Below, piece by piece: positions 13,557-50,124 of a DNA stretch of 51,727 bases. This stretch comes from Bacteroidota bacterium. GTDB taxonomy: Bacteria > Bacteroidota > Rhodothermia > Rhodothermales > Rubricoccaceae. Each line of letters opens with the position of its first letter. Within the stretch, counting starts at the first letter, position 1. The notes under the pieces were generated by a model. The model saw only the letters and a program-made list of their open reading frames with translations, did no database searches and was not told where the DNA came from. A program made the position numbers and the translations under genes. Location: the NCBI GenBank assembly GCA_039815415.1, contig JBCBZH010000001.1:1-51727 (forward strand), in the 5' to 3' direction.

Positions 13557-13714
13557 CGTCAGCTCGAGGGCCGTTCGGATGCCAAGGCTCCACGGTGCAT
13601 TCTTCCCGGTGCCGATCTGAGAGATGTTCCTTCCTCGAAGGAGAGCACGCACCTCCACGGGTCGACCTCGAGCTGGCGACACCGCGCACGGCTCACAGCC
13701 CCTAGCTTGCCCCT

Positions 13715-14671
13715 ATGAAAGTCACCGAGCATTACGACCGCGCCGATGGGCCACTGCTCTCCTACGAGATCATCCCGCCGAAGCGTGGTGGAGGGGTGGA
13801 CCAGGTGCTGGAGATTGTACAGGCGCTGAAGCCGTACCGTCCGCCCTTCGTGGATGTCACCAGCCACTCGGCCGAGACCATCTATGAGGAGATGCCGGAC
13901 GGGACCATCCGGCGGCGCGTCAAGCGCAAGCGCCCTGGGACGCTCGGGCTGTGCGCGGCCATCCAGCACCGCTTCGGCATTGATGCTGTGCCGCACGTTC
14001 TCTGTCAGGGGTTCACGCGGGAAGAGACCGAAGACGCGCTGATCGAACTGCACTACCTCGGCATCCACAACGTGCTGGCGGTTCGGGGCGACGACAAGGG
14101 CTTTGCCAAGCCGTTCCGCGCCGACCGAACGCGCAACGAGTACGCCTCAGACCTGGTCGCGCAGGTGACCGACATGAACGCCGGGAACTACCTCGAAGAC
14201 TTGCTCGACGCCGCGCCGACGGACTTCTGCGTCGGCGTGGGAGGCTATCCCGAGAAGCACGAGGAAGCGCCCAACATGACCTGGGACATCCTCAATCTCA
14301 AGAAAAAGGTGGATGCGGGGGCGGACTACGTGGTCACTCAGATGTTCTTCGAGAACCGTCACTACTTCGACTACGTGGAGCGATGCCGGGACGTGGGCAT
14401 TGATGTGCCCATTGTGCCGGGGCTGAAAATCCTGACCTCGAAGCGGCAGCTACAGTCCCTCCCGAAAGTGTTTCACACAGAGATCCCCGAGGCACTGGCC
14501 GCCGAGGTGGAGGCCGCGCCCGATGAACAAACGGCAGACATCGGAGTGGAATGGGCGCGGCAACAGGCGACCGAGCTGATGGACGCAGGCGTGCCCGGCA
14601 TTCACTTCTACATCATGTCCACAGCCAGGCACGTGGTGCGTGTGGCGGAGCCTCTGCAGCGGCTGGTCTGA
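13715..14671 (+). CDS. metF: 5,10-methylenetetrahydrofolate reductase
   Basis: 318 aa with MetF-like sequence throughout (SYEIIPPKRG, NVLAVRGD, GADYVVTQMFF). Confidence 0.9.
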   Translation: MKVTEHYDRADGPLLSYEIIPPKRGGGVDQVLEIVQALKPYRPPFVDVTSHSAETIYEEMPDGTIRRRVKRKRPGTLGLCAAIQHRFGIDAVPHVLCQGFTREETEDALIELHYLGIHNVLAVRGDDKGFAKPFRADRTRNEYASDLVAQVTDMNAGNYLEDLLDAAPTDFCVGVGGYPEKHEEAPNMTWDILNLKKKVDAGADYVVTQMFFENRHYFDYVERCRDVGIDVPIVPGLKILTSKRQLQSLPKVFHTEIPEALAAEVEAAPDEQTADIGVEWARQQATELMDAGVPGIHFYIMSTARHVVRVAEPLQRLV

Positions 14672-14689
14672 TCGCCAGCTCGAAGCTGG
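14672..14689 (+). repeat. Copy of the TCGCCAGCTCGA(G) intergenic motif directly abutting the metF stop codon; also a small palindrome CCAGCT-cga-AGCTGG
   Basis: TGA occupies 14669-14671 and TCGCCAGCTCGAAGCTGG begins at 14672. Confidence 0.8.
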
Positions 14690-14705
14690 TGTCATCTCAT
14701 GCGGG

Positions 14706-14727
14706 GGGGCACGATGCATCGTGCCCC
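14706..14727. terminator. Perfect 22-nt palindrome between convergent metF and hpf; candidate bidirectional terminator hairpin
   Basis: GGGGCACGATGCATCGTGCCCC read directly. It lies between the two convergent 3' ends. There is no strong U-tract on either side. Confidence 0.55.
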
Positions 14728-14777
14728 TACGGATCACAATTGCTCCGGTCAAACACACGCATGAGGGGTAAGGGGCG

Positions 14778-15089
14778 TCAGGCGCGGACCTGGCGGTCGC
14801 CTTTGTCGCGGAGCTGGTCCTTGAAGCGGAGCAGCTGGCGACGAAGATGCTTGACGCACGCATGGACCGCAGCATCATGGGTCTGTGCCGTGTCCTGGGC
14901 AGTGATCGTCTGGCGGTAGACCTGGAGGGTCACATCGGCGCGCTTACGGTCCTCGGCCTCTTCTGTAAGCACGACGTGGGCGTCGAGGATGCCGTTGTAG
15001 ACCTTGTCGAGGGATTCGATTTGCTGAGTGACGTGGTCGCGGAGTCCATCCGTGGCGTCGAACTGGCGAGCGGTAATCCGGATCTGCAT
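14778..15089 (-). CDS. hpf: Ribosome hibernation promoting factor / ribosome-associated inhibitor (short HPF/RaiA type)
   Basis: MQIRITARQFDATDGLRDHV... is typical of the S30AE/HPF family. The start is set at ATG 15089; the upstream ORF-track extension is not protein-like. Confidence 0.8.
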   Translation of the reverse strand: MQIRITARQFDATDGLRDHVTQQIESLDKVYNGILDAHVVLTEEAEDRKRADVTLQVYRQTITAQDTAQTHDAAVHACVKHLRRQLLRFKDQLRDKGDRQVRA

Positions 15090-15249
15090 CGCAAGGTGGG
15101 AAGTGAGGGGGACCGTATGGGTACGCTTTGGGGAGGCCGCCGTCAAGGGGGAGGTTCGAGAGAGGCCGAGTGGGGAAAAGGAGCACCCCCGGTTCAGCCG
15201 AACTCGTACGTCGGTGTGGAGCCTGCGTCCGGTTCGCCCTGGCCGCCTC

Positions 15250-15711
15250 TCAGGTCACCTGCTCGAGGTAGCGGTCCTCGAGCTGGCGCATGGCCGCGCG
15301 CTCGGCGTCGGTGGCATCGTCGTAGCCGACGAGGTGCAGCAAGCCGTGAGCGACGTACCGCAAGGCCTCGTGCTCCGGAGTCGCCCCGAACTCGCCAGCT
15401 CGCTCCGCAGCCATGTCGAGGTCCACGTAGATCTCGCCGTCAATGTCGCCCTGGGCTTGGGCAGCCTCGTCTAGAACGAACGAGACCACGTCCGTTGGAT
15501 AGTCGTGCTGGAGCCAGTCGCGGTTGACCGTCCACACCGTCTCGCGGTCCGCCAGCACAACGCTCAGGCTGGTGACACGGACGCCTTCGCCCTGGCACAC
15601 GGCGTCCACCACAGCCTCCACGGTCGCCAGATCGAGCTGGCGAGTGGGGTGTGCCGCGTGGACCTCAAGGCCCGATGCCTGGGCGTCTCTCTCCGGCGCC
15701 GGAGCAGGCAT
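15250..15711 (-). CDS. ybeY: rRNA maturation endoribonuclease YbeY
   Basis: Metal-binding motif HGLLHLVGYDD. The start is placed at ATG 15711 to avoid overlap with the upstream gene; ATG 15759 is an alternative. Confidence 0.85.
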   Translation of the reverse strand: MPAPAPERDAQASGLEVHAAHPTRQLDLATVEAVVDAVCQGEGVRVTSLSVVLADRETVWTVNRDWLQHDYPTDVVSFVLDEAAQAQGDIDGEIYVDLDMAAERAGEFGATPEHEALRYVAHGLLHLVGYDDATDAERAAMRQLEDRYLEQVT

Positions 15712-15724
15712 CGCGGTGGCGGGG

Positions 15725-16174
15725 CTACTCGGCGCCGTCGCCTTCGAAGAAGGGCTCACTCATCGACAGCACGACGGCGGCTTGGGCCACTTCCGGCGCC
15801 AGCTCGAGGAAGTCAGCGGAGAGCAGCTTCTCGGAGACGTTGGCGTAGAGCGAGCACGCGGCAGCCTTCTCGATGACCATGCCGTGGACGCGTCCACCGT
15901 CACGCGCGAAGAAGATGACCTCGCCCAACTCATCCGAGGTCACGACGCCCGCACAACCGTGCAGCTCCAGGTGGGACTCGGTGCCGTACACCTTCACCAG
16001 GGACGCGCCACCAGCTTGCACCACTTCGACGGCGAGCCGCCGTCCGGAGGCCGCATCCGCCAGCGCGAAGCGGACGCCGCCGGGGCTGCCGTCGGCTCCG
16101 GGGAGCGGCTCCGCCGGGACGCCGAGCGTCGCGGCCACGCGGTCGAAGTCAGCGGAGGTCAAGAGGGCAGGCAT
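15725..16174 (-). CDS. Hypothetical protein
   Basis: 149-aa ORF with host-like codon usage, co-directional with ybeY. No motif recognised. Confidence 0.45.
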   Translation of the reverse strand: MPALLTSADFDRVAATLGVPAEPLPGADGSPGGVRFALADAASGRRLAVEVVQAGGASLVKVYGTESHLELHGCAGVVTSDELGEVIFFARDGGRVHGMVIEKAAACSLYANVSEKLLSADFLELAPEVAQAAVVLSMSEPFFEGDGAE

Positions 16175-16251
16175 GGGCTACAGAATGAAGCGAGGGGAAA
16201 GGTACGACGGGCTAGGAACGGGCTGGCGAGTGATATCGACCGAGTCGTTCT

Positions 16252-16278: not shown

Positions 16279-16280
16279 GG

Positions 16281-19519: not shown

Positions 19520-19697
19520 GCGCAGGGGGAGAGTCGGCCCGGCGGGAGCGCGGGGAAGGGCGAAGATACCCCGGTCCGTGTGAGGCCCGGGCGAACGCCC
19601 AACGGAGACGCGCCGCGCGTTCGCGCCTCGAGCTGGCGGTGGCAGAACGGATGGGGCGTCGTGCGCGTGACCTCTCGATGTGTCCGATGCCTCTCCT

Positions 19698-19823
19698 GTC
19701 ATCCTGAACGAAGTGAAGGATCTCAACGCATCCCTCTCAATTCTGGCTACCGACGGCCAAGGCTACCCTCGCGCTGAGATCCCTCGACAAGCTGGCTACG
19801 CCGACCTAGCGGTTCGGGATGAC
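19698..19823. repeat. Palindromic REP/MITE-like element of the GTCATCCTGA...GGATCT family
   Basis: The left arm GTCATCCTGAACGAAGTGAAGGATCTC and right arm GAGATCCCTCG...CGGGATGAC are inverted relative to each other. Confidence 0.7.
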
Positions 19824-19886
19824 ATCCCGGGGAGGTGCTTCTAGGGGACCCACTCAGCCTCTGGCAGTCCCCATCGAGCTGGCGAC

Positions 19887-20333
19887 TTACCAGCTGTTCT
19901 TCGCACCCCGAATGGCACGGTCGAGCTGGTGCTTCGTGACCTCGCCGTAGTTGAAGGCAGTCGCCAGCTCGCCGTTGCGGTTGAACACCCAGGTGGTGGG
20001 AATCCAGGTGACGGGGAGGCCGAGAAAGGTCATCTCGCGGTCCTCCTTCGGAGCCTCCTCGCCTACGCCAGGTTGACCCACGATCTGGGCGCGCGTGGGG
20101 ATGCCATGCTCGCGGAGCGTCGCCTCACCGGTCTGGCCCTCGTCCCACATCGACACGAAGGTGAACGTCACGTCGTCGTGCTGGCGAATGGCGTCGGCCA
20201 GCCCGCGCTTGAGCTGGGAGATGGAGTTGCCACACCACGCTGCCCAGAACACGATCACGTGGATGCCGTCGGCCTGAACCGTGTCGTGGACCGTTCGTTC
20301 GGCGTCCGTGCGAGGGGAGGCGAGGTTAGTCAT
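19887..20333 (-). CDS. Thioredoxin-fold protein, single-Cys WCGNS motif, no signal peptide
   Basis: It has FWAAWCGNS in place of WCxxC and only one Cys in the whole protein. It is a paralogue of the upstream gene. ATG 20333 overlaps the upstream stop by 8 nt. Confidence 0.7.
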   Translation of the reverse strand: MTNLASPRTDAERTVHDTVQADGIHVIVFWAAWCGNSISQLKRGLADAIRQHDDVTFTFVSMWDEGQTGEATLREHGIPTRAQIVGQPGVGEEAPKEDREMTFLGLPVTWIPTTWVFNRNGELATAFNYGEVTKHQLDRAIRGAKNSW

Positions 20334-20796: not shown

Positions 20797-20831
20797 AGAG
20801 TGGGGCAGAGACGAGAAGCCCATTCAACCTT

Positions 20832-20858
20832 GTCATCCTGAACTTGATTCAGGATCTC
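20832..20858. repeat. Short hairpin version of the GTCATCCTGA...GGATCT repeat
   Basis: GTCATCCTGAACTTGATTCAGGATCTC contains ATCCTGAA/TTCAGGAT arms. Confidence 0.65.
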
Positions 20859-20938
20859 CTCCGAGAGGGGAACGAGGCAGAATACCGGCTCGAAAGTAGA
20901 GGTCGCCTGCGACTCGAGGCCGTCCGTCGATCTAGCGA

Positions 20939-23152: not shown

Positions 23153-23210
23153 GGCCTGAAGCTATGGGCGACGAGTGAGGGGCTACGGGTTTTCTGTGTT
23201 GGTCGGGGCT

Positions 23211-23259
23211 CGCCAGCTCGAGGCGGATGGGATCGGTTTCGAGCTGGCGTTGACGTTCA
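23211..23259. repeat. Inverted pair of the 13-mer motif (CGCCAGCTCGA ... TCGAGCTGGCG), perfect 11-bp arms, 27-nt spacer
   Basis: Read directly in the divergent intergenic region between the LptF/G-like gene and the MBL hydrolase gene. Confidence 0.8.
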
Positions 23260-23357
23260 CAGGCGGGTGCAGCAGGCCGTTGGTAGCAGAAACATCAAAC
23301 GCCAAGCCGCCTTTCTTGGTCTCTACGGGGCGCCGGCCGTCGAGCGGGTGACATCTT

Positions 23358-23434
23358 GCCCACTGCCCACTGCCCACTGCCCACTGCCCACTGCCCACTG
23401 CCCACTGCCCACTGCCCACTGCCCACTGCCCACT
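23358..23434. repeat. Perfect heptanucleotide tandem repeat (GCCCACT)x11 ending 4 nt before the start codon at 23439
   Basis: Counted directly: 11 perfect units from 23358 to 23434, then GCCC-ATG. Confidence 0.95.
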
Positions 23435-23438
23435 GCCC

Positions 23439-24092
23439 ATGACTATCCAGACCTTCGTCGTCAGCCCGTTCGCCGAGAACACCTACATCCTGTCCGACAG
23501 TGGAGAGTGCGCGCTGGTGGATCCCGGCACGGCCACACGCGGAGAGCGCCAGCTCGTCGGCGGCGCCATCGAGGATGCCGAGCTTCGGGTGCGGCACCTT
23601 CTGCTCACGCACGGCCACATCGACCACGTGTTCGGGTGCGATCACTTCGCACATCGCTACGCCAACGACGCCGACTATGGCGGCTGGCAGCTCCACCCGG
23701 CGGATGGACCGTTGCTCGAGCAGGCCGTGGTGAAGGGCGAGCTGTACGGCGTCCGCGTGGATGCGCCGCCTCCGGCCACGCGCGAGCTGGCGGAAGGCGA
23801 CACGGTCGAGATCGGGAGCACCACGCTGCGCGTGCTCCACGTCCCCGGCCACTCGCCCGGCTCCGTCGCGTTCTACGACGAGGCAGGCGGGCAGCTCATC
23901 GGCGGCGACGTGCTCTTTCAGGGCTCTATTGGGCGCACCGATCTCTGGCAGGGCAGCATGGAGACGCTGCTCGCATCCATCCGCGACAAGATCCTGGTCT
24001 TGCCCAACGACACGGTGGTCCACTCTGGCCACGGTCCGAGCACGACGGTCGGGGCCGAGCGGCGATCCAACCCGTTCCTGCGCGATCTGTAG
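23439..24092 (+). CDS. Metallo-beta-lactamase fold hydrolase (glyoxalase II / YcbL-like)
   Basis: HGHIDHV motif and further His/Asp ligands ([13 protein letters not shown]); 217 aa. Confidence 0.8.
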
Positions 24093-24295
24093 AGACGTCG
24101 GGGTGGCAACCCGTCTTAGAAATGAGTCATCCCCGCGTAGGCGGGAACCGAAGGTCGCGTAGCAACCCATGCGAGGTAGCGTCATCGCCTTTTTGCTCAT
24201 GCTGGTGACCGCCAGCTCGTAGGCGATGCCGAACCCCTCACCCTGTACCTCTCACGCGGGGAGAGCGGACGCATAGTTGACCTCGAGCTGGCGAA

Positions 24296-25474: not shown

Positions 25475-25517
25475 GTCAAGCTGGCGAGTGGGAGAGCACC
25501 GCGTTCGTTCCTCACAG

Positions 25518-25557
25518 CCATGGCGAGGAGCCGAGCGACGTGACAATCTCGCCATGG
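25518..25557 (-). promoter_or_regulatory. Perfect 10-bp-stem hairpin in the putative 5' leader of the aminotransferase gene
   Basis: CCATGGCGAG (25518-25527) pairs with CTCGCCATGG (25548-25557), 44-83 nt upstream of ATG 25474. Function unknown. Confidence 0.4.
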
Positions 25558-26002
25558 TATAAGTTGGGTGTGGAAGGCGTCTCTCGGGACCGCCAGCTCA
25601 ACAAACGCGGAGAGCTGGGTATCGGCGGTCTGGCGAGAATGCACCCAGGTCCACACTGAGCGGGAGCATCTTGGACATCCGGGACTCACTGTTCTTGGAG
25701 GGCTTCGGCGCGTGTCGCGCTAAGGGCATACACGCAGTCCACCCGGCTGTAGACACGTCAGGGCATAGCGGTCTGCCAGCCCAAAGCGCCACTGCATCAG
25801 TGCAGACGCCGGTGTGTTGGGGAGAATGCGTTCCAGCTAAGCGCCGCTGAGACCACCGCTGTGTTCGCGAGGAAAGTCCGTTCGGTATCTACCGATGACG
25901 GCTGTAGCGGGGTGTGCGCTAATGTGCCAACGCGGACCACGGCAAATTGTCCGCGTCCAAGCTTTCAGGGACCGGCATGCATCCAAACACGGGAGCCCAA
26001 TA

Positions 26003-26686
26003 TCAGAAATCAACCCCCACCCCGATACTTCCCGTCAGCGCGAGGGCTTCGATGCCAGATCCTGCTAGAGCCACATGGCCGCGCACGTCTGCACGTGCTG
26101 TGAGATCACCGAAGAAGGGCGCAGCGATGTTCAGGGGGCGCTCTGCACCTAGGCTGGCAGTCACTTGTGGAAAGATGTGAGATGGGCGAAGGGTCTCAGG
26201 ATTCATCAGCGTCAAGAGCCCGCCTCCTACAGAAGCCGATCCGATGATGGTGTCGAACGCCTGCTGATGAACTCGCAGGCCGACATCATAAGCCCCATAC
26301 CAGTGTCCTCGGGACGGTACCGTGGTGCCTGAGTTGGTTTTTACGTTGGCGTCCAGGCTGGTGGGTGTGAACAGAGCACCGGCCTCAATCATCACGTCAT
26401 CGCGCAGGCGGTACGTCGCCCGGGCTCCGGTGGTCATCGTGAGGCCTCGCGCGCGATCGCTCGGAGCCGGATTGAGAAAGTCGACCGCGGGCTCACGTTC
26501 GAAAATGGCCACGTTATAGTCATACCGTCCGTTCGTGAACCCGGCATTTGAGAAATAGCCTGAGCCAAGGGTGATATACACCCGGAGAGGTGCGGCCTCT
26601 TCTATTGACTGCGCAGTGGCCGTGGTGAGTGCGAGAGACGCTACAACCAGCAGTGTGGAGATACGTACGGAATTAGAGCCGGACAT
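26003..26686 (-). CDS. Outer-membrane beta-barrel protein
   Basis: Signal peptide (STLLVVASLALTTATAQS), alternating beta-strand pattern and a C-terminal aromatic residue (GVGVDF). The start is set at ATG 26686. Confidence 0.65.
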   Translation of the reverse strand: MSGSNSVRISTLLVVASLALTTATAQSIEEAAPLRVYITLGSGYFSNAGFTNGRYDYNVAIFEREPAVDFLNPAPSDRARGLTMTTGARATYRLRDDVMIEAGALFTPTSLDANVKTNSGTTVPSRGHWYGAYDVGLRVHQQAFDTIIGSASVGGGLLTLMNPETLRPSHIFPQVTASLGAERPLNIAAPFFGDLTARADVRGHVALAGSGIEALALTGSIGVGVDF

Positions 26687-27164
26687 CGAATACACCGGAG
26701 ATGGGGTTGGGATCGTCTGGGCGGGTGGTGAAGGAGAAGGACCCCGAAAGGCGAGATCCGTCTGCCACATCAAGGGTCAGTGTGCCGACCTCGACATCCG
26801 GCCAAGAGAACGTGGCCAATCCACCTCGGGGCCCGGCCAGGAAAAACGTGACCTCGTCTCGGTCGTCTACAAGGTCATAGGTCCGACCTTCCTCAGGAGC
26901 AACAAGAGTGATGTGTGCGCCGGCAACGGGATCCGATCTGTTGAATCCGCCAGCTCCGCCGAAAGAGCCATCCTCCACGCCGAGAGAGCGGAACTGGAAC
27001 GCCACAACATCGACGTCCTGAGCAATGAAGAGGCATTCGGACACAAAAGTGTTGAAGCCATCCGAGAATGAGAATGTGCTCTCGCTGGAGCAGCCCTCAG
27101 AGAGGGCGTCACACCCACTTAGGGCCAAGGACGCGCTGGTGATGAGGAGAATCAGGGGTCGCAT
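26673..27164 (-). CDS. Lipoprotein of unknown function
   Basis: Lipobox LALSGC after a hydrophobic leader (MRPLILLITSAS). It overlaps the downstream OMP gene by 14 nt. Confidence 0.55.
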   Translation of the reverse strand: MRPLILLITSASLALSGCDALSEGCSSESTFSFSDGFNTFVSECLFIAQDVDVVAFQFRSLGVEDGSFGGAGGFNRSDPVAGAHITLVAPEEGRTYDLVDDRDEVTFFLAGPRGGLATFSWPDVEVGTLTLDVADGSRLSGSFSFTTRPDDPNPISGVFDVRL

Positions 27165-27325
27165 AAGGAAGAAGGCTGGGGCCATTCACATACACAACCG
27201 AGATCCAGTCTCCATGTGGCTCACCCCCGCTCCTTGTTCAGCGGGCGCATTTCTGTCAGGGCTAGTGGGCGGCCGACGCAGACTTAATCCTTAGCGGACT
27301 CAATTCTTCATCCATTCGCTTGGCG

Positions 27326-28667: not shown

Positions 28668-28685
28668 CGCCAGCTCGAGCTGGCG
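28668..28685. repeat. Perfect 18-bp palindrome CGCCAGCTCGAGCTGGCG (two fused copies of the 13-mer motif core)
   Basis: Read directly, 68-85 nt upstream of the helicase start codon. Confidence 0.9.
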
Positions 28686-28780
28686 CAGAACGACGAGGGT
28701 TCAATCGAGCAGGAGAGATGTGGCATCCCTCTCTTTATTCAGCAGGGCCGCTACGTGCAAGCTCACTACCCTCCCCCAAA

Positions 28781-28916
28781 GTCATCCTGAGCGAAGTGAG
28801 CGGACGCGAATGCAGTCGAAGGATCTCAGGATTGCATGACGGTTCCCCAGCTCGAGCTGGCGCTGTGCTCGGAGGAGATCCTTCGACTCCGCCCTCCGGG
28901 CTCCGCTCAGGAGGAC
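28781..28916. repeat. Palindromic REP/MITE-like element (GTCATCCTGAGCG...GGATCTC / GAGATCC...CTCAGGAGGAC) carrying CCAGCTCGAGCTGG in its loop
   Basis: Inverted arms read directly. The loop palindrome lies at 28847-28860. Confidence 0.75.
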
Positions 28917-29122
28917 TCAGATTGAGAGGTCGTGTCAGAACCTAGCGGCCTTGTCTCTTGAGCCAGTGACAGGGAGGGGGAGCATGGGATTCAGGTTCCT
29001 CGGATTCTCAGTTTGCCTCCGAGAACAGCCGGGCTCGAGTCGATGTAGTCACGCCATTCCATACGTCTGGTTCATCCATACGAGCTTGAGCAAGGGGCTC
29101 TCGAGCTGGCGACTCCCGGCGG

Positions 29123-31029: not shown

Positions 31030-31163
31030 CCTTGTCATCCTGAGCCGCTAGGCCGACGCAGTCAACGTGATTCAGGATCTCATGCCCAAAGTTGAAACGT
31101 ATCGCCAACCTGAGATTCCGAATCGAGTTGACTGCGTCGGCCTTGCGGCTCGGAATGACAAGG
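31030..31163. repeat. Palindromic REP/MITE-like element, about 134 bp, with near-perfect 37-bp terminal inverted repeats
   Basis: CCTTGTCATCCTGAGCCGCTAGGCCGACGCAGTCAAC matches the reverse complement of the right end, CCTTGTCATTCCGAGCCGCAAGGCCGACGCAGTCAAC. Confidence 0.85.
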
Positions 31164-31229
31164 GAGCTACGGAAGGCCTATCTGGATGATCTCCCTTCAC
31201 CGACAGAGTCACACCCTCGAGCTGGCGAC

Positions 31230-32351
31230 TTAGATCACGTCACCTGCGACGTCCGCCGCCGTCGCGCCGGAGAGCAGGCGCAGACTCGCAGGCTCGGCGC
31301 GTTGCATCAGCATGTCCAGCGACAGGCTCACCAGCTCGCCCATCGTGTCCGCGGTGCGGAAGGCAGGATCATCGTAATGCTCTGCAAGCGTGGCGCCGAG
31401 CCCGGCGACGTAGGCAGGCGGCGCGATAATGTCCTCGCGCATGACCTCCATCAACTCCTCGTAGCGCCGGTGACCTACGCGGAGGCGGCCCGCCATCAGT
31501 GCGCGCTCCTCGCGCTGGTACTGGTTCACTGTAGGCTCGGTAAGCTGTTCGAGCCCGAAGGCGATCACCGGGTTGTTCTGCGGGAAGAACTGCGGCAGGT
31601 AGACCTGACGGCGCGGGTGGTGACTCTGCTGGTCGAAGTCGATGGCGCGGATGCGGAAGTGCAGCTTCTCGAAGTCCGGCGTGATGTCCACGACCCAGTT
31701 GCCCGCGTGCATGTCGCCCAGCAGGCGCACGAAGCAGCGCTCGTTGAACTTGACGAACTCCTTCGCCAGCCGGACCTGATCGAACCGGTTGTCGGGCAGC
31801 GCGTCGCGGATAAACGCGTCACCTGGAAGACCGATGATGTGCTCCTCGATGAGCGTCTGGTCTCGTACGTCTGGCCCGTCTACACGGGCGAGGAAGTTGA
31901 TGGGGTTGGGCGAGAGGATGTGCTCCAGTTCGAGGCCGTAGGCCCGGCTGGCGTCGGCGCGCTTGACGTAGAAGTAGTCGAAGTTCTCGTTTAACCGGTT
32001 GACAATCCGAACGCGGAACGGTGCCGTGTTGCCGTAGAGGCACAGGTCGATGCGGTCCACGTACAGGTGCTCGACCGTCGAGATGTCACCGCCGGACTTG
32101 AGAAGCGCATACGTGAGCTTCAGTGCCTTGTGGATCTCGGCCTGCTCACTGGGCCCGTAGTAGACCGAACTCCAGAGCGTATCGTCGCCCTGCTCGTCGT
32201 AGAGCGGGATCTGGCCCGCGAAGCGCTCGATGTCATCGTAGCGCACGCCGCCCTGCACCAGTCGCCCGTAGCGGTCGAGGTACTCGGTCAAGAAGTCGCC
32301 GATGGGGTAGGCGGGCTTCTTACGGGAGATCAGGTTACGGCGGCCGTCCAC
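31230..32351 (-). CDS. Hypothetical protein with protein-kinase-like catalytic-loop-like motifs
   Basis: 373 aa with a GTG start. LLGDMHAGNWVV resembles the HxDxxxxN catalytic loop of ABC1/APH-type kinases, and IRAIDFD resembles a DFG-type metal-binding motif. This is pattern similarity only. Confidence 0.45.
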   Translation of the reverse strand: MDGRRNLISRKKPAYPIGDFLTEYLDRYGRLVQGGVRYDDIERFAGQIPLYDEQGDDTLWSSVYYGPSEQAEIHKALKLTYALLKSGGDISTVEHLYVDRIDLCLYGNTAPFRVRIVNRLNENFDYFYVKRADASRAYGLELEHILSPNPINFLARVDGPDVRDQTLIEEHIIGLPGDAFIRDALPDNRFDQVRLAKEFVKFNERCFVRLLGDMHAGNWVVDITPDFEKLHFRIRAIDFDQQSHHPRRQVYLPQFFPQNNPVIAFGLEQLTEPTVNQYQREERALMAGRLRVGHRRYEELMEVMREDIIAPPAYVAGLGATLAEHYDDPAFRTADTMGELVSLSLDMLMQRAEPASLRLLSGATAADVAGDVI

Positions 32352-32389: not shown

Positions 32390-32421
32390 TCGCCAACTCG
32401 ACCAATCCCTCGAGCTGGTGA
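32390..32421. repeat. Inverted pair of the 13-mer motif (TCGCCAACTCGA / TCGAGCTGGTGA) directly abutting the bshA stop codon
   Basis: Read directly. The right arm ends at 32421 and the stop codon occupies 32422-32424. Confidence 0.75.
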
Positions 32422-33597: not shown

Positions 33598-33714
33598 GGG
33601 GGCCGAACGCCAGAGCCGGGGTGGTGTTGCGAGGAGAGCACGTATCGAGCGGTCTACCGACTGCGCTCAGTGAGATAGAACTTCCGCCGTTGGTATCCAA
33701 CCTCCTCCATCCAC

Positions 33715-33836
33715 GTCATTCTGAGCGCAGCGAAGAATCTCGCTGTCCCTAGCGCTCGGCTCCCTAGGGGCAAAACGCTGCCACGCGACCAGATCCTTCG
33801 CACCACCGCCCGTCGGGCGAGCGGGCTCAGGATGAC
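33715..33836. repeat. Palindromic REP/MITE-like element of the GTCATYCTGAGCG...GGATCT family
   Basis: The left arm GTCATTCTGAGCGCAGCGAAGAATCTCG is inverted relative to the right arm AGATCCTTCG...GCTCAGGATGAC. Confidence 0.75.
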
Positions 33837-33931: not shown

Positions 33932-33963
33932 CAGAGCCAGAAGGGCTGACTCGATCTGGCGAT

Positions 33964-34467
33964 CTAGAACTTCCGCAGACCGATCTTGAGCTGCACGTCA
34001 GCGCTGGTCACGCCCTGGTAGTCATTGTTGATGTCTTCGAGGTTGACACCGGGCTGGAAGACCTCCGCTCTGAGCCGGTCTCCGCCGCCTTCGAAGACGA
34101 TGGTGCCTGGCATGTAGAAGGACTCCAAGCGACGGTCATCGTCGAAGTTGACGCGGACATCCCGGCCGTTGACCTCATACGAACCGGTGCTGAGCACTTC
34201 TTCGACAGAGTTCTCACCAACCCGCTCGAGCGTGGCAATGCCCCCCAGCTCGAGGTTTAGCACCACGTTGTCACCGAGCACGTCGCGGAGCAGGTCAACG
34301 TCCCGGACAGCGCCTGAGGTGGGAGCCATCGTGTACTCCGTGAACTGGTAGCGCCCGGAGACCTCAAGAGCCGTGAGATCGGATTGGCCGAACAGGCCAA
34401 AGCCGCCGCAGCCCGACACCGGAAGGACGAGGGCGACGAGGAGAAGAGAAAGCAGGGAGACGCGCAT
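33964..34467 (-). CDS. Lipoprotein of unknown function
   Basis: Lipobox VLPVSGC after a hydrophobic leader; 167 aa, beta-rich. Confidence 0.6.
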   Translation of the reverse strand: MRVSLLSLLLVALVLPVSGCGGFGLFGQSDLTALEVSGRYQFTEYTMAPTSGAVRDVDLLRDVLGDNVVLNLELGGIATLERVGENSVEEVLSTGSYEVNGRDVRVNFDDDRRLESFYMPGTIVFEGGGDRLRAEVFQPGVNLEDINNDYQGVTSADVQLKIGLRKF

Positions 34468-35349: not shown

Positions 35350-36537
35350 CTAGAACCGGAGAATCGCTGCCGTGGGGCCGTGCTTGCGGAGGGCCTCCTT
35401 GGCGGGTTCGCTGCGCACCAGCTCGAGGCTGGCGCCCTGGGCCATCGCTTTGTCCAGCATGTGTTCCACGAGGTCGCCGACGGGCTCGATCGCGCCACCG
35501 GTGGCCGCATAGGTGCCGTCGGTCTCGGAGGTCAGCATCTCGGCCGTCGGCTCGATGCCACCAGGAACCCGCACATCGTCGTCAACCAGGAGCGTCATCA
35601 CGCGCTGCTGGTTGAGCATGTCCAGCGTGTCATCGAGCCCAGCCACGGCACGTGTAGAGAGCAATTCCTCCACCTTGCCGATGGTTTCCATCTCTTCGCG
35701 GGCCTCTACCTCGCGCTGAATGGGATCGGCGGCGGCAGCCAGCTCGGCGGTGGTCACGTTGGTGTCGCACGCAAAGGATGCGGAGACGCGCTGGCGCGTG
35801 GCTTGGTCGAGGCGGTCGAGGAAGTCAGCCTCCATGTCGGCCGGCGCGGAGTAGATCACGTGGCGCGCGCTGAGGGTCTCGGTGATGAGCTGCAGCGCGT
35901 GGGCGCTTCGCTGCGCCTGGGTCTTGCGGAGGTCTGCCTTGATGTCCTGACGCTGGTCTTTCGTCGCGAAGTCTGTGACAGCCATCTCCTCGCCGGCCAT
36001 CTCATAGACCTCCTCCACCAGCCCGATCTGGGCGAAGAAAAAGCGACTCTTGTGAGCCGAGAGCAGCGCGATCACAAAGCGGTCGTTCTCGTCTCGGATG
36101 CGGGCCAGCGGCCGGATGTACGAGCGGCGGTCCAGGTGAACCGTGTTGGGCAGCTCGATGGCCGTTCCGAGCTGGCGAAACAGGCCCAGGGACTCGCATG
36201 CGAAGAAGGCGATTCCGTTTCCGGTGCGGGGCAGACCGGCCTGAAGGGCGGCTTCGATCCGCGCCAGCTCGCTCTTGACCTGGTGGCGGTTCTCGGCCGA
36301 GCTGGCGGCGAGGGCCCGGTCTCGGAGGTCCTTGAATCCGGTGATCCACGAGTCGCCGACGCGCATCTCGGGCTTCAGGGCCATGTAGAGGCTGACAATG
36401 GGGGCACTTTCAGACTGCAGGTCGTTCAGTTCCTGCAGGTGGTCGGGCGAGAGAAAGTGGTAGCCTGGCGTGGTGATCCGGCGGCGCAGTTCCGCGAGCA
36501 GCTCGTCACGGGCGTCAGGCGTCAGCGTGGTAGACAT
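35350..36537 (-). CDS. Bacterial eRF1/Pelota-like (baeRF/VLRF1-type) protein
   Basis: 395 aa starting MSTTLTPDARDE at ATG 36537. The three-part layout and the C-terminal end (...ALRKHGPTAAILRF) resemble eRF1/Pelota domain 3. The ORF-track extension from 36538 to 38106 is antisense to the next gene and is rejected. Confidence 0.5.
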   Translation of the reverse strand: MSTTLTPDARDELLAELRRRITTPGYHFLSPDHLQELNDLQSESAPIVSLYMALKPEMRVGDSWITGFKDLRDRALAASSAENRHQVKSELARIEAALQAGLPRTGNGIAFFACESLGLFRQLGTAIELPNTVHLDRRSYIRPLARIRDENDRFVIALLSAHKSRFFFAQIGLVEEVYEMAGEEMAVTDFATKDQRQDIKADLRKTQAQRSAHALQLITETLSARHVIYSAPADMEADFLDRLDQATRQRVSASFACDTNVTTAELAAAADPIQREVEAREEMETIGKVEELLSTRAVAGLDDTLDMLNQQRVMTLLVDDDVRVPGGIEPTAEMLTSETDGTYAATGGAIEPVGDLVEHMLDKAMAQGASLELVRSEPAKEALRKHGPTAAILRF

Positions 36538-40384: not shown

Positions 40385-40393
40385 GGCAGAGGC

Positions 40394-41361: not shown

Positions 41362-42555
41362 ATGCTCCGCATCGTCGCTGACGCCAACATCCCCGCAGCT
41401 CGGGATGCCTTCGCCCCGTTTGGCGAGGTGCGCCTGATGCCAGGCCGCGAGATCACGCGCGCCGCTCTTCAGGCCGCTGACGTGCTGCTGGTCCGCAGCG
41501 TCACCCGTGTGGATGCCGCGCTGGTAGAGGGCACCCCGGTTCGGTTCGTTGGGACCGCGACTGCAGGCACCGATCACGTGGACGCAGAAGCGCTTCGCCA
41601 GCTCGAGATCGCGGTTGCCTCTGCGCCGGGCTCCAATGCGACCTCGGTGGTCGAATACGTGCTGGCGGCGCTGCTCGGGCTGGCGGCGGACCGAGGCGTC
41701 GGGCTGGCAGGGCGGACGCTCGGCGTGGTCGGCGTGGGGCAGGTGGGGAGCCGGTTGATCCCTCGGGCTCGGGCGCTCGGGATGGAGATCGTCGCCTCGG
41801 ATCCGCCTCTGGCTGAGGCTGGTGGCCGCCCCGGCGTGGATCTGGTCGGGCTGGCGGAGGTGCTGCACCACGCCGACATCCTGACGCTTCACACGCCCCT
41901 GTCTACCCCGGAGACCTCGGCGTACCCGACGCTCGGGAGGATCGGGGCGGAGGCGATCCACGCCCTGCGCCCCGGCGCGTGGCTGGTCAACGCCGCGCGT
42001 GGGCGCATCGTGGACGGTCCCGCGCTTGCAGAGGCTCTGGGGACTCGCCAGCTCGAGGCCGCCGTGCTGGACGTGTGGCCGACCGAGCCCTCGCCCGATC
42101 CGGAGTTGGTGGCCCAAGTCGATCTGGCGACGCCGCACATCGCGGGCTATTCGTTCGATGGCAAGGTGGCCGGGACGCGCCAGCTCGAGGCGGCCCTTCG
42201 CGCCTGGGTGGGCGACCCGCCCTCGCCGTGGGACGCCAGCCCGACGCTCGCGTCATCGGGTCCGCTCCTCGCCGAGGCGCCGCCTGCTGCTGGGGATCTC
42301 GCCGATCCGGTCCAGCAAGCCGCGTGGCTCGATGGCCTCGTGCGCCAGGCCTACGACGTGCGCGCCGACGACGCCCGGTTCCGGGCGGCGATGCACACCG
42401 AAGATCGGGCCTCGGCGTTCACGGCCCTGCGCAAGACCTACCCCGTCCGGCGCGAGTGGGCCCGCACCACCGTGCGTGGGAGCATCCCTGAGCCTCTCCG
42501 CGACGCCGTCCGAATCGGGCTGGCGTTTGGGAAGGCGGCAGACGGTAGACGGTAG
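41362..42555 (+). CDS. pdxB: Erythronate-4-phosphate dehydrogenase
   Basis: The N-terminus MLRIVADANIPAARDAFAPFGEVRLMPGREI matches the PdxB pattern. NAD-binding GVVGVGQVGSRL and a C-terminal PdxB dimerisation-type extension. Confidence 0.8.
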   Translation: MLRIVADANIPAARDAFAPFGEVRLMPGREITRAALQAADVLLVRSVTRVDAALVEGTPVRFVGTATAGTDHVDAEALRQLEIAVASAPGSNATSVVEYVLAALLGLAADRGVGLAGRTLGVVGVGQVGSRLIPRARALGMEIVASDPPLAEAGGRPGVDLVGLAEVLHHADILTLHTPLSTPETSAYPTLGRIGAEAIHALRPGAWLVNAARGRIVDGPALAEALGTRQLEAAVLDVWPTEPSPDPELVAQVDLATPHIAGYSFDGKVAGTRQLEAALRAWVGDPPSPWDASPTLASSGPLLAEAPPAAGDLADPVQQAAWLDGLVRQAYDVRADDARFRAAMHTEDRASAFTALRKTYPVRREWARTTVRGSIPEPLRDAVRIGLAFGKAADGRR

Positions 42556-42585: not shown

Positions 42586-42702
42586 GCCGTCATCCCGAAC
42601 CGCAAGGTCGGCGAAGCCAACTTGATCCGGGATCCACGGATGAGCTAGAACGTGGATTGGTAAAAACCGGCCTTCGGCTCCCGCCTGCGCGGGAATGACG
42701 GC
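42586..42702. repeat. Palindromic REP/MITE-like element (GCCGTCATCCCG ... CGGGAATGACGGC) between convergent pdxB and era
   Basis: Terminal inverted repeats and an inner hairpin ATCCACG...CGTGGAT read directly. A copy of the 13-mer motif follows 18 nt later. Confidence 0.75.
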
Positions 42703-42746
42703 ATGGAGATGTAGTCGCCCCGAGCTGGCGCGGCCTCTTTGACGGT

Positions 42747-43745
42747 CTACTGCCCGAAGCCGTACTCCCGGAGGTGGCCGTCCTTGTTGCGCCAGTCGGC
42801 CCGCGTCTTGACGTAGAGCTGGAGAAACACGCCACGCCCCAGGAAGGCCTCGATCTCGGTGCGTGCCGCCTGCCCGAGCCGTTTGAGCGCGGCGCCGCCC
42901 TTGCCAATCAGAATCGCCTTCTGGGAATCCCGCTCCACCACGATGTCGCAGGCGATGAAGTCCTTGCGGCCCTCGCGCTCCTCGAACGTCACCACTACAG
43001 CCTGGGTGGAGTAGGGCACCTCATCGCGGAACTGGTGGAAGACGGCCTCGCGGACGATCTCGCCGATAAAGAAGCGCTCGGGGTGTTCCGAGAGCTGGTC
43101 GGTCGGGTAGTACGGCGGGCCTTCCGGGAGCCGGTCCAGGATGAGGCGCAGCAGCGTGTCCACGCCCGTGCCGTTGAGAGCGGAGATGGGGACGATCTCT
43201 TCGAAGATGCGGCCCTCCCCCAGGACGGCATCGTAGGCCTCCACCAGAGGCAGCGCGTCCGTGGATTGTCCGAGCCGATCCACCTTGTTGACCGCCAGAA
43301 AGATCGGGTTGGGGAACGTCTGGAGGCGCTCCAGCGCGGCCTCGGCATCGTGCGTGACGCGGGTGTCGGTGGCATCCGCCAGCACGACGGCCACGTCGGC
43401 GTCGGAGAGGGAGCGGTCCACGTCGCGCATCATGTGATCGTGGAGGCGGTAGCGGGGGCGCACCACGCCGGGCGTGTCCAGGAACACGATCTGGTGTGGC
43501 GGGCGACCCTCGGGCGGATTGGTCTCCGAGAGAATGCCGAGCACGCGGTTGCGCGTGGTGGAGGGGCGCGGCGAGACGATGGACAGCTTCGTGCCCAGCA
43601 GCCGGTTGAGCAGCGTGGACTTGCCCACGTTCGGGGCACCCACCAGCGCGACGTAGCCGCTCCGGTGGCCGTCCGGGACCGCGCCGGACATCAGCAGCTC
43701 GGCGCCGGGGACGTTTGCGAGCGGGTCGTCGGGAGACTCAGACAT
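42747..43745 (-). CDS. era: GTPase Era
   Basis: G1 motif GAPNVGKSTLLN, plus DTPG and NKVD, and a C-terminal KH domain. The start is set at ATG 43745. Confidence 0.9.
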   Translation of the reverse strand: MSESPDDPLANVPGAELLMSGAVPDGHRSGYVALVGAPNVGKSTLLNRLLGTKLSIVSPRPSTTRNRVLGILSETNPPEGRPPHQIVFLDTPGVVRPRYRLHDHMMRDVDRSLSDADVAVVLADATDTRVTHDAEAALERLQTFPNPIFLAVNKVDRLGQSTDALPLVEAYDAVLGEGRIFEEIVPISALNGTGVDTLLRLILDRLPEGPPYYPTDQLSEHPERFFIGEIVREAVFHQFRDEVPYSTQAVVVTFEEREGRKDFIACDIVVERDSQKAILIGKGGAALKRLGQAARTEIEAFLGRGVFLQLYVKTRADWRNKDGHLREYGFGQ

Positions 43746-43841
43746 AACAGAGGGGACGAGCTGGCACACCGCCAGCCCGTCCCCAAAGATCGTCACGGTT
43801 GGGAACCATGACGGGAGATGCCCGCTCAGGGAGCAGGTGTC

Positions 43842-47471: not shown

Positions 47472-47702
47472 ACCGAGATCGGGGGGAGAGCAGGGAGGGG
47501 GAAAGCCCTCACCAGATCCGTTCCCCAAGCCCCGAAATCGGCTTCACGGTGCTCTCTCCGTCATGCCGCCATGCCAGATGCGGCCTCCTGTCGTCTCAAA
47601 ACGACTGTCTCAGTCTCAGAATGAGCCCTCCAGCCGCAGGGGCTCCAGAGTCCTCGGCCTCCCGGTCTCACTCTGGAGCGGTCGAAAATCACCCGTGCTC
47701 GG

Positions 47703-48470: not shown

Positions 48471-48583
48471 GGGAAGCACTGGTGAGGGGGGCGAGCGCCA
48501 GGAGTCTAGATCCAGGGCGCGCGTTTCGGCCCGATCTGTGCACGCGTCCCCAGTATCTTCACCGCCGTTCTCCCCCCACCACC

Positions 48584-49087
48584 ATGACTGACGCTCCGAG
48601 CCTTACCCACGTAGACGACCACGGCCGCGCCCGCATGGTCGATATCAGCGCCAAGAGCGCCAGCGCGCGGACAGCCGTTGCCACGGGGCGCGTCAAGATT
48701 GGCGCGGAGGCGCTCGAGCTGGTTCGCGAGAACGCCATCCGCAAGGGCGACGTGCTCTCCGTCGCTCAGGTGGCGGGGGTGATGGGAGCCAAGCAGACGA
48801 GCCGCCTGCTGCCGCTCTGTCACGATGTGCTGCTCCAGAACGTGGAGATCGAGCTGGAGCTGAACGACGCTGAGAACGCCATCGACGTGCGGGCGATCAC
48901 CAAGACGGTGGGGCCGACGGGCGTGGAGATGGAGGCCCTCACGGCAGTGTCCGTGGCTGCACTGACGGTCTACGACATGTGCAAGTCGGTGACGAAGGAC
49001 ATCGAGATCACCGGCGTGCGCCTGCTGGCGAAGTCTGGCGGCCGCTCCGGCGACTACCGCCGCCAGCCCGACGCGCGGACGAACTGA
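48584..49087 (+). CDS. moaC: Cyclic pyranopterin monophosphate synthase accessory protein
   Basis: LTHVDDHGRARMVDIS, LLPLCH and TGVEMEALTAVSVAALTVYDMCK are typical of MoaC. The start is set at ATG 48584. Confidence 0.85.
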   Translation: MTDAPSLTHVDDHGRARMVDISAKSASARTAVATGRVKIGAEALELVRENAIRKGDVLSVAQVAGVMGAKQTSRLLPLCHDVLLQNVEIELELNDAENAIDVRAITKTVGPTGVEMEALTAVSVAALTVYDMCKSVTKDIEITGVRLLAKSGGRSGDYRRQPDARTN

Positions 49088-49092
49088 GGCGA

Positions 49093-49482
49093 ATGCCCAG
49101 GCTCACCGACGAGCTGGTGCGCGACGCCTTCGCTCCGCTCATGGAGCACGGGTTCTCGGGTCCCGACTGGTGGCTGGCTGGAACCGACCAGATGGTGACC
49201 TTCCGGCGTGACGGCGTTGAGGTCCATCTCGAGGTGGAGGATATGGGAACGAACCTCCCCAATGCCTACATCCGCCAGCCCGACGGGAGCGAGTTGTACC
49301 TGACCGACAACTCAGAGTATCCGGCGTTCTCCCGTTTTCTGCGCCTATGGCGTCCATTTCGATGTGGCCGACAGCGCCGTTTAATGGCAAGTCCTCTGAT
49401 GGCAGAGGTCGAGCGTGAGCGAGAGGCTCGTGTTAGGAGACTCGCATTGCTCGCAGAAGCACATCTTCCCAGACTCGCGTAA
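49093..49482 (+). CDS. Hypothetical protein
   Basis: 129-aa ORF starting 5 nt after the moaC stop. No motif recognised. Confidence 0.35.
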   Translation: MPRLTDELVRDAFAPLMEHGFSGPDWWLAGTDQMVTFRRDGVEVHLEVEDMGTNLPNAYIRQPDGSELYLTDNSEYPAFSRFLRLWRPFRCGRQRRLMASPLMAEVEREREARVRRLALLAEAHLPRLA

Positions 49483-49493
49483 GCCTGCCCCTT

Positions 49494-49591
49494 CCTGTCA
49501 TCCTGAGCGGACGCGAAGGATCTCGCCCCAATTGGGCTGCAGGCACCCGAGGAACCAGATCCTTCGTCGCGTCGCTCCTCAGGATGACAGG
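49494..49591. repeat. Palindromic REP/MITE-like element (CCTGTCATCCTGAGCGGACGCGAAGGATCT ... AGATCCTTCGTCGCGTCGCTCCTCAGGATGACAGG)
   Basis: Inverted arms read directly. A 13-mer motif copy follows at 49611-49623. Confidence 0.8.
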
Positions 49592-49673
49592 CAGAGGAGA
49601 ACGAGGGGATCTCGAGCTGGCGAAAGTGGCGGCTCGACCTGCGTATCGTGAGGCGTCCTCGCCCGTTCATGTC

Positions 49674-50090
49674 ATGGAAGCACTATCCGGAGGCGCCGCC
49701 CTCGTCGTCATTCTGGGGGTCCCGATCTTCGCGATCATCCTCCTCTACTATGTCCCAATGGGACTTTGGATTTCAGCCGTCACGGCTGGCGTGCCTCTGA
49801 AGATGTCCGAGCTGATCGGAATGCGGCGCAGGAAGGTGCCTCCGATACTCATCGTTCAGCCACTCATCGCTGCGCATGCGGCCGAGATAGACGTCTCCGT
49901 TCGGCAGCTCGAGGCCCATCATCGTGCCGGAGGACAGGTCCAGGAGGTCGTGAACACGCTCATCCGGGGACAAATGGCGAACGTCGAGCTGACGTTTTCA
50001 GAGGTCGCCGCGCTCGATCTGGCGAGGGATGATGATGGTGGAAAGGCTCTGGCGGCGCTTCTCGCCTCCATCGAAGAGCGGCGCGCCTGA
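49674..50090 (+). CDS. Truncated paralogue of flotillin-like FloA (TM helix plus the first part of the SPFH domain only)
   Basis: 138 aa. [40 protein letters not shown]... aligns residue for residue with the N-terminus of the next gene, and the first ~100 nt are nearly identical at DNA level. Confidence 0.6.
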   Translation: MEALSGGAALVVILGVPIFAIILLYYVPMGLWISAVTAGVPLKMSELIGMRRRKVPPILIVQPLIAAHAAEIDVSVRQLEAHHRAGGQVQEVVNTLIRGQMANVELTFSEVAALDLARDDDGGKALAALLASIEERRA

Positions 50091-50092
50091 GC

Positions 50093-50124
50093 CGAGCTGG
50101 CGACCAGGCGATTTCGCCAGCTCG
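50093..50124. repeat. Inverted pair of the 13-mer motif (CGAGCTGGCGA / TCGCCAGCTCG, 11-bp arms, 10-nt loop) 2 nt after the stop of the truncated floA paralogue
   Basis: Read directly. Confidence 0.8.

Follow-up and report, generated by a model that had tools for sequence, protein, structure and literature searches.

The window analyzed here is a 51,727-nt stretch of a Rubricoccaceae (Rhodothermales) genome (GenBank assembly GCA_039815415.1, contig JBCBZH010000001.1, positions 1 to 51727), and our subject is a short DNA word that recurs throughout it, both between and inside genes. The region is chromosomal and of housekeeping character, with genes for alternative complex III, cytochrome oxidase, MetF, HPF, YbeY, a TMEM260-like glycosyltransferase, RsmI, LptF/G, a DEAD-box helicase, AbgT, PdxB, Era, PdxJ, MoaC, and FloA. 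The closest homologs of its proteins belong to Rubricoccaceae/Rhodothermales. An exact-protein look-up of the window's MetF and of protein P0062 returned no matching record, and scanning it for Rfam families and tRNAs gave no matches. An earlier note on this DNA had drawn attention to a 13-mer in noncoding DNA between positions 13667 and 50124, often placed next to stop codons. That range proved too narrow: the word occurs from position 397 onward and in each 2.5-kb bin of the window.

The 13-mer, TCGCCAGCTCGAG, is present in 11 exact copies on the two strands (0.02 expected from dinucleotide shuffles) and in 84 copies with up to two mismatches (4.9 expected; maximum, 11). Its enrichment is real, but k-mer counting identified the conserved unit as a shorter 10-nt core, CGCCAGCTCG. 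The core is found 58 times without mismatch (1.12 per kb), a density about 70-fold above that in 47 control loci of 60 to 70% GC from other genomes (0.016 per kb). Its flanks are soft (t-core-a-g), with T at position -1 in 50% of the copies and A at +1 in 60%, followed by G and G; core position 8 accepts either C or G (CGCCAGCCCG and CGCCAGCGCG), and conservation around the word ends at about 13 nt. One-mismatch variants of the core are enriched as well. With up to one mismatch allowed, the dispersed family (positions 1 to 51727, both strands) comprises 160 sites, 76 on the plus and 84 on the minus strand, a balance that holds for the 52 kb examined.

About 62% of the cores lie inside genes. 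The 36 to 37 coding copies correspond to 0.87 per kb and the 21 to 22 intergenic copies to about 2.2 per kb, an intergenic excess. This split depends on our own codon-usage gene caller, in which stops are fixed by the ends of open reading frames (ORFs) and starts are less certain; the gene calls for relatives L001, L002, L004, and L056 (see below) are also our own. The core is not self-complementary, and only four sites form an 18- to 20-nt palindrome. Because inverted pairs of the word show both arm orders and variable spacers (0 to 25 nt), the unit is the word itself and not a hairpin; nor does it look like a mobile element.

Codon usage does not account for the copies inside genes. We counted 36 coding cores, compared with 4.5 after synonymous-codon shuffling (maximum, 11) and 0.84 after codon-order shuffling, and the coding density of 0.87 per kb compares with about 0.016 per kb in GC-matched genomes. 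The reading frames are dominated by RQL, ELA, and ASS, and 14 of 17 RQL tripeptides are written as CGCCAGCTC and 13 of 19 ELA tripeptides as GAGCTGGCG. The earlier note had attributed in-frame copies (RQLE, ELA) to preferred codons. The shuffles refute this, and the GC-matched density and the conservation of synonymous sites in a close relative (below) contradict it too. In four of four relatives tested (L056, L001, L002, and L004), coding copies of the relative's own word also exceeded the synonymous-shuffle expectation. Ortholog alignments showed coding word sites without indels, and the window's residues depart from those of relatives exactly at the word, which together show that the coding copies arose by substitution. 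Three in-frame copies in pdxB (41595 to 42189, plus strand), each encoding RQLE, illustrate this. At two of the three sites, relatives have YQLG, ASLG, RALE, or AMLA, so these copies, too, are derived from substitutions.

Once present, copies tend to be kept. The nearest relative is a metagenome-assembled genome (MAG; GCA_054602075.1, locus L273), with conserved gene order and a TMEM260-like protein 90% identical to that of the window. Of the window's 18 coding sites, 12 are kept exactly at an overall nucleotide identity of 0.84 (90% amino acid identity), compared with 23% of control 10-mers (P = 1e-4). Identity at third codon positions is 0.84 within sites and 0.64 outside them (P = 2e-4). 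Sites are conserved in either orientation, and the lost ones mostly differ by 1 nt.

Intergenic copies gather 0 to 30 nt past stop codons. In seven called genes, the core starts 1 to 2 nt past the stop, always in sense orientation: cox1, metF, the aminotransferase gene, a GT4 glycosyltransferase gene, and the genes ending at 19887, 31230, and 33964 (g19887, g31230, and g33964). Random intergenic placement gave 0.26 such sense copies (maximum, 3 in 5,000 trials). The register to stop codons and its orientation bias, which the earlier note had read by eye, are therefore nonrandom. Its six tight cases (metF and the genes ending at 19887, 24296, 31230, 32422 [TAG/TCACC..], and 33964; a slash marks the end of the stop codon) are correct, and nearly all of the positions it listed hold a copy with zero to two mismatches; 25590 and 43757/43771 are weak, with at least three, the latter belonging to a hairpin of variant arms at 43752 to 43784.

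On the plus strand, copies are flush with the stops of cox1 (TAG/TCGCCAGCTCGAC; 11645 to 11657) and metF (TGA/TCGCCAGCTCGAA; 14672 to 14684, with a small hairpin formed with GCTGGTG behind it). On the minus strand, they follow g19887 (gene 19887 to 20333; TAA g TCGCCAGCTCGAT; 19873 to 19885), the aminotransferase gene (exact; TGA t TCGCCAGCTCGAG; 24282 to 24294), g31230 (gene 31230 to 32351; exact; TAA g TCGCCAGCTCGAG; 31216 to 31228), and g33964 (gene 33964 to 34467; TAG a TCGCCAGATCGAG; 33950 to 33962). At the GT4 stop, also on the minus strand, an inverted pair that forms a hairpin is flush with the codon (TAG/TCACCAGCTCGAG ggattg GTCGAGTTGGCGA; 32390 to 32421). Besides overlooking cox1, the earlier tally of gene 3' ends had missed flush copies after ORF 13221-13556 (TGA/CGTCAGCTCGAG, one core mismatch; 13556 to 13568, plus strand) and, in decayed form, after rsmI (TAA/TCGCTAGATCGAC; 20926 to 20938, minus strand). 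Two of its three looser cases hold: an exact copy 10 nt past the abgT stop (gene ending at 29123; 29100 to 29112, minus strand) and a copy with two mismatches 15 to 16 nt past the era stop (gene ending at 42747), whose core is exact and lies 16 nt past the stop (42719 to 42731, minus strand). The third, after the truncated floA-like ORF 49584-50090, does not, as its flush copy is antisense (TGA gc CGAGCTGGCG) and the sense copy lies 24 nt downstream; the two form a reverse-then-forward inverted pair able to fold into a hairpin (50091 to 50126, both strands).

Some flush sites are common to the window and L273 (g19887, g13221, and rsmI), and others are lineage specific. The L273 orthologs read TGA/CGCCAGCTCG at the end of ORF 13221-13556 and TGA t CGCCAGCTCG, intact, at the end of rsmI. 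The g19887 copy is conserved in L273 and degenerate in relative L274, and in this 3' region the word is a conserved island amid diverged DNA. Three simple causes of the flush register were ruled out. Offsets of 0 and 1 both occur, which excludes a fixed reading frame or read-through; copies elsewhere have no upstream T[AG][AG], which excludes target-site-specific insertion at stop triplets; and C termini align across species (sole exception, pdxB of L146, described below), which excludes shifted or truncated C termini.

Some neighboring features deserve mention beside the stop codons. A bacterial eRF1-like gene (Pfam baeRF_family10; E = 3.5e-21) lies at 35350 to 36537 (minus strand) in the window, at 17026 to 18213 in L146, and at 15218 to 16399 in L148, in conserved gene order among housekeeping genes in Rubricoccaceae, a curious neighbor for a word packed against stops. 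TAG is the commonest stop (about 92 TAG, 54 TGA, and 30 TAA in about 176 genes of the window, L001, L002, L004, L056, L146, L148, L150, and L273; 64 to 75% GC). In GC-rich bacteria, TGA is normally the dominant stop, and a preference for TAG is unusual. The truncated floA-like ORF is a duplicate of the 5' part of floA (Pfam FloA positions 2 to 111) directly upstream of full-length floA (50193 to 51083); the two share a 121-nt direct repeat of 89% identity (49672 to 49792 and 50191 to 50311), and the inverted word pair at 50091 to 50126 sits exactly at their junction.

Relatives' loci were collected through homologs of AbgT, Era, and the TMEM260-like protein; 10 to 50 kb was examined per genome, and several of the genomes are MAGs. 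A metagenome scan with the TMEM260-like protein found almost only distant Bacteroidota (30 to 37% identity), which served as negative controls. The 13-mer was absent from all 65 AbgT loci examined, and the window's own word is carried by L273, L274, L146, and L275. Other relatives have words of their own at 0.7 to 4 copies per kb, compared with a median of 0.28 per kb for the commonest 10-mer across 123 loci. The same word, CGCCAGAGGC, occurs 74 times in 21.6 kb of a Rubricoccaceae MAG (L056) and 55 times in 21 kb of the cultured Rubricoccus marinus SG-29 (L148). The cultured Rubrivirga litoralis S365 (L150) has GGGCGGGGCG (88 copies in 21 kb, 41 of them coding and 41 on the plus strand), giving these two strains 2.6 to 4.2 copies of their own word per kb. 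A Rubrivirga MAG (L001) has CGTCCTCGAGGACG (10-mer CGTCCTCGAG, 23 copies in 9.8 kb), a Rhodothermales MAG (L002) has CCGCCAGCGGG (its 10-mer 15 times in 20.2 kb), and a Bacteroidota MAG (L004) has CCGCCTCGGGG (its 10-mer 22 times in 12.2 kb). In all, at least six different words exist among the Rubricoccaceae and nearest relatives sampled, and genomes with 89% AbgT identity carry different ones. We found no hyperabundant word in loci L151, L152, L003, and L005 to L007, and L147 showed only a faint trace of CGCCAGC[T/C]CG words (0.09 and 0.26 per kb). A scan of viral contigs for TCGCCAGCTCGAGG gave single chance matches and no word-rich contig.

Two metagenomes each yielded a word-bearing and a word-free Rubricoccaceae locus: L275 and L147 (ERZ23498908), and L146 and L151 (ERZ25070591). 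L275 has CGCCAGC[T/C]CG at about 0.8 per kb each and L147 almost none, though both are near the window's lineage; the contrast may stem from variation between regions, or the two may be different organisms. In L146, a tandem word array (at least seven units of CGCCAGCTCGTAGG; 11418 to 11515) adjoins pdxB (11500 to 12681, minus strand), and the PdxB C terminus is replaced by a word-encoded ...GASS that ends at the array's own TAG. The 390-nt spacer between era and pdxB in L146 is crowded with word variants.

The different words occupy the same places. The orthologous ends of abgT, GT4, g31230, and g33964 show the same C terminus followed by each species' own word. For example, abgT is followed in L001, L002, and L056 by the respective species' word, and the R. 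marinus ortholog of g31230 ends in TGA/GTCTCTGGCGCCAGAGGC. Of 17 genes in L056, 8 have the word overlapping or directly adjoining the stop (TAG/CCTCTGGCG, TAA/GCCTCTGGCG, and TGA/GCCTCTGGCG). Orientation past stops is biased at 7:0 (sense) in the window, 4:1 in L273, and 8:3 in favor of the GCCTCTGGCG orientation in L056.

Taken together, CGCCAGCTCG is a lineage-specific, hyperabundant 10-nt word with soft flanks, maintained genome-wide by a strand-indifferent, sequence-specific DNA process. Point substitutions create copies where the sequence allows them, both in genes, at variable protein positions that lie in compatible frames (RQL, ELA, and ASS), and in intergenic DNA, and copies are preserved once present. 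By analogy with known systems, we tentatively favor a DNA-level drive resembling that of DNA uptake sequences, with species "dialects," although we give it somewhat less than an even chance. Competent cells would favor DNA bearing their own species' word for uptake and recombination, this preference would push the word to about one copy per kb, and uptake specificity would diverge into dialects. The word's density of about 1 per kb, strand symmetry, few coding frames, intergenic excess, enriched mismatch forms, origin by substitution, site preservation, inverted pairs at 3' ends, and dialects are all published traits of DNA uptake sequences (DUS) and uptake signal sequences (USS) (PMC1939737, PMC2346458, PMC3630211, bioRxiv 10.1101/2025.10.24.684340).

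Several points weigh against this reading. Uptake drive alone does not predict stop-flush copies (7 versus 0.26) or the sense bias. Both features speak for an additional constraint or function, specific to one strand, at mRNA 3' ends. None of the models tested accounts for the flush register together with its orientation bias; the loss of neutral spacer through a deletion ratchet would account for the flush position and leave the orientation unexplained. We found no competence genes in the loci examined and no joint mention of Rhodothermales and natural transformation in the literature searched. The possible roles, as the earlier note had held, cannot be told apart from sequence alone; an uptake-like word was not among the roles that it listed. 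To our knowledge, uptake sequences are known from two proteobacterial families only, and tandem arrays such as that of L146 are atypical of them. A mobile or defense-linked determinant would likewise fit the patchy distribution, in which some close relatives have no word, and the rapid change of specificity.

One serious alternative is an intracellular process like that behind HIP1 of cyanobacteria, that is, a mutation-biasing repair or methylation system or an abundant chromosome-organizing DNA-binding protein acting without uptake. Hyperabundance in coding and noncoding DNA, strand symmetry, site conservation, species variants, and patchy distribution all accord with such a process. The L001 word is a palindrome around CTCGAG, a hexamer that is also part of the window's word. 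We nevertheless consider such a process unlikely. The cores of the window, L056, L148, L002, L004, and L150 are not palindromes, and it is unusual for a methyltransferase or repair system to recognize a contiguous, asymmetric stretch of 10 to 13 nt. We identified no gene of this kind in the loci examined, and the process itself does not explain the 3'-end preference.

A selected transcript 3'-end signal also remains a rival, at least as an RNA role for the post-stop subset. Here the word, single or in inverted pairs, would recruit a sequence-specific factor or fold into a hairpin, terminating transcription or protecting the mRNA 3' end from exonucleases, and the coding copies would be a by-product. 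In most word-bearing genomes, 27 to 100% of the genes have the word within 30 nt past the stop, compared with 0 to 24% before starts. The strong sense bias, the species' own words behind unchanged stop codons at orthologous ends, and the conserved island past g19887 are also as expected of such a signal, and inverted pairs in relatives form terminator-like or mRNA-stabilizer-like 3' hairpins, of which R. marinus has the classic form (GCCTCTGGCG-7nt-CGCCAGAGGC-TTTTT). The structural evidence in the window speaks against it. Most copies in this lineage are single and unstructured; the folding of single copies past stops is no stronger than that of shuffled sequence (z > -1), and hairpins come only from inverted pairs. 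Consensus hairpin-plus-T-run terminators were not enriched (9 versus 8.8 and 11 versus 7.7 expected), nor were consensus promoters. The window's only terminator-like site built from the word is a hairpin of variants with a 15-bp stem (CGGGCTGGCG and GCCAGCTCG) and a T-rich tail, between a 713-amino-acid gene and era (43752 to 43784, minus strand). As a signal of this kind, which the earlier note had listed, cannot explain the intragenic majority, conserved in both orientations and at synonymous sites, and sits poorly with the rapid turnover of flush sites between 90%-identical genomes, it is doubtful as a general account, although it may apply to the copies past stops.

The earlier note had also named a repetitive extragenic palindromic (REP)-like element or the terminus of a mobile element, so that the 13-mer would be an arm or end of a REP/REPIN- or miniature inverted-repeat transposable element (MITE)-like palindrome spread by a RAYT or other transposase. 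This fits poorly, and we consider it quite improbable. Intergenic copies do favor gene 3' ends, some copies form inverted pairs or perfect palindromes (28668 to 28685 and 9864 to 9881), the words are species specific and patchily distributed, and the L146 array took the place of the PdxB C terminus. Against this stand the intragenic majority, created by substitution without indels, the lack of conservation past about 13 nt, both arm orders with variable spacers, and the lack of a shared flanking target sequence at copies away from stops. A genuine hairpin family in the same intergenic regions, with arms of the type GTCATCCTGA...GGATCTC and extended conservation, looks quite different. Chance, or a bias of codons and composition in this GC-rich genome, is refuted as an explanation: the commonest coding frames (CGC CAG CTC and GAG CTG GCG) do consist of preferred codons, but dinucleotide, synonymous-codon, and codon-order shuffles all fall short 8- to 500-fold, and copies are about 70-fold fewer in GC-matched relatives whose codon usage is similar.

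The remaining intergenic copies are varied in form. An exact 13-mer lies 36 nt 5' of the metF start and antisense to it (13667 to 13679, minus strand), and a forward-then-reverse pair occupies the divergent spacer between lptFG and a metallo-beta-lactamase (MBL)-fold gene (23210 to 23250, both strands). Perfect 18-bp palindromes are found at the cox2/cox1 junction (9864 to 9881, both strands), outside the range of the earlier note, and upstream of the DEAD-box helicase gene (CGCCAGC-TCGA-GCTGGCG; 28668 to 28685, both strands). Near-palindromes lie at 15624 to 15643 (TCGCCAGATCGAGCTGGCGA; both strands) and at 28845 to 28862 (CCCCAGCTCGAGCTGGCG; both strands), the latter within the loop of another hairpin element, distinct from the word, with arms GTCGAAGGATCTC and GAGATCCTTCGAC. 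One copy with two mismatches abuts the aminotransferase start (TCGCCAGCTTGAC/ATG; 25475 to 25487, minus strand), with 0 nt between them and not the 1 nt previously given.

The window also contains other repeats. A second, distinct intergenic family of long hairpins, with arms of the type GTCATCCTGA(g/a)CG...GGATCTC, occurs at 19697 to 19724, 19778 to 19823, 20831 to 20858, 28780 to 28930, 31030 to 31163, 33714 to 33748, and 42589 to 42634, and looks like a true REP/MITE-type element. The example at 31030 to 31163 has 53-nt arms that are 87% complementary, and the element at 28780 to 28930, the larger palindromic element of the earlier note, carries the word copy at 28845 to 28862 in its loop. 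Perfect heptamer tandem arrays, with a unit that differs per genome, occur in intergenic DNA and might be variable-length spacers: (TGCCCAC)x11-12 in the window (23357 to 23439), ending at the ATG of the MBL-fold gene, (GTCAGCG)x6 in L273 (16014 to 16055), and four arrays in R. litoralis L150 (2124 to 2172, 2428 to 2497, 6772 to 6806, and 16591 to 16632). A stretch of lower GC content (0.61) at 25490 to 27325 has no exact core, weakly supported ORFs (outer membrane protein-like; E = 0.009), and a gene order unlike that of L273; the stretch may have been acquired or rearranged recently.

Hyperabundant species-specific words are rare. Known cases comprise DUS and USS, from two proteobacterial families, and cyanobacterial HIP1, and whether they reflect selection or molecular drive is debated. 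We found no prior description in the literature searched on these words, Rubrivirga, Rubricoccus, Rubricoccaceae, or Bacteroidetes uptake sequences, the Rubricoccaceae literature being sparse. Conceivably, and with less confidence than we attach to the uptake-like drive as such, Rubricoccaceae have unrecognized species-specific self-DNA words, which would be the first uptake-like system outside Proteobacteria, with a specificity that shifts between close species and is sometimes lost. The flush, fixed-orientation placement would then mean that the word has a further role, specific to one strand, in terminating translation or forming mRNA 3' ends. With at least six words and several word-free genomes among close relatives, the family is a natural experiment, and the cultured, word-bearing SG-29 and S365 make biased uptake, the evolution of its specificity, the gene behind it, and the packing against stops directly testable. 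The words reshape spacers and protein sequences alike, and anyone who assembles or bins genomes of these organisms, designs primers, predicts terminators, or sets up transformation protocols for them will be affected.

Among known systems, REP/REPIN elements, terminators, and Chi each have a defining feature that the word was tested for and lacks. REP sequences of E. coli and Pseudomonas are species specific, GC rich, often palindromic, and located just past stops, where they can form 3' hairpins stabilizing the upstream mRNA. REP, BIME, and REPIN elements are structured, 20 to 40 nt long, of fixed geometry, and extragenic only, whereas the window's word has 10 to 13 nt, occurs mostly as single copies with conservation to about 13 nt, and has about 62% of its cores in ORFs, beyond codon-shuffle expectation and through substitution. 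No PF01797-type gene (RAYT, Y1 transposase) was present in the loci fetched. Rho-independent terminators share the post-stop location, and some inverted pairs are GC-rich hairpins, a few of them T-tailed (43752 to 43784 in the window and after the gene ending at 16958 in R. marinus L148); unlike them, post-stop copies in the window are mostly single and unstructured, with no T-run, and a single sequence recurs throughout the genome, genes included. Chi of E. coli is GCTGGTGG. Like Chi and KOPS, the word is a species-specific, overrepresented oligomer, and its reverse complement contains GCTGGCG, one base off Chi. A Chi-like function was ruled out by the absence of strand skew in the window (76 versus 84); furthermore, the density is 5 to 10 times that of Chi, and orientation follows the gene and not one strand.

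HIP1 (GCGATCGC) is hyperabundant, has sites conserved beyond expectation and lineage variants, and is of unresolved function. It resembles the window's word as a short hyperabundant word in genes and spacers alike, but it is an 8-bp palindrome linked to methyltransferases, and the core described here is a nonpalindromic 10-mer with a post-stop preference. The DUS of Neisseriaceae and the USS of Pasteurellaceae differ in that the window's host belongs to the Rhodothermales (Bacteroidota), a different phylum, that its word is flush with stops and strongly sense biased, that word-free close relatives and, in L146, tandem arrays exist, and that specificity turns over very fast (different words at 89% AbgT identity). 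The likenesses are broad. An asymmetric word of 9 to 13 nt occurs about once per kb, equally on both strands, in coding and noncoding DNA with an intergenic excess and restricted frames; one-mismatch forms are enriched, and copies originate by point mutation. Inverted pairs stand at gene 3' ends, one gene-relative orientation is favored, and lineages have dialects. By this analogy, the different words that relatives carry in the same places seem to follow a pattern otherwise known from the uptake sequences of Neisseria and Haemophilus.

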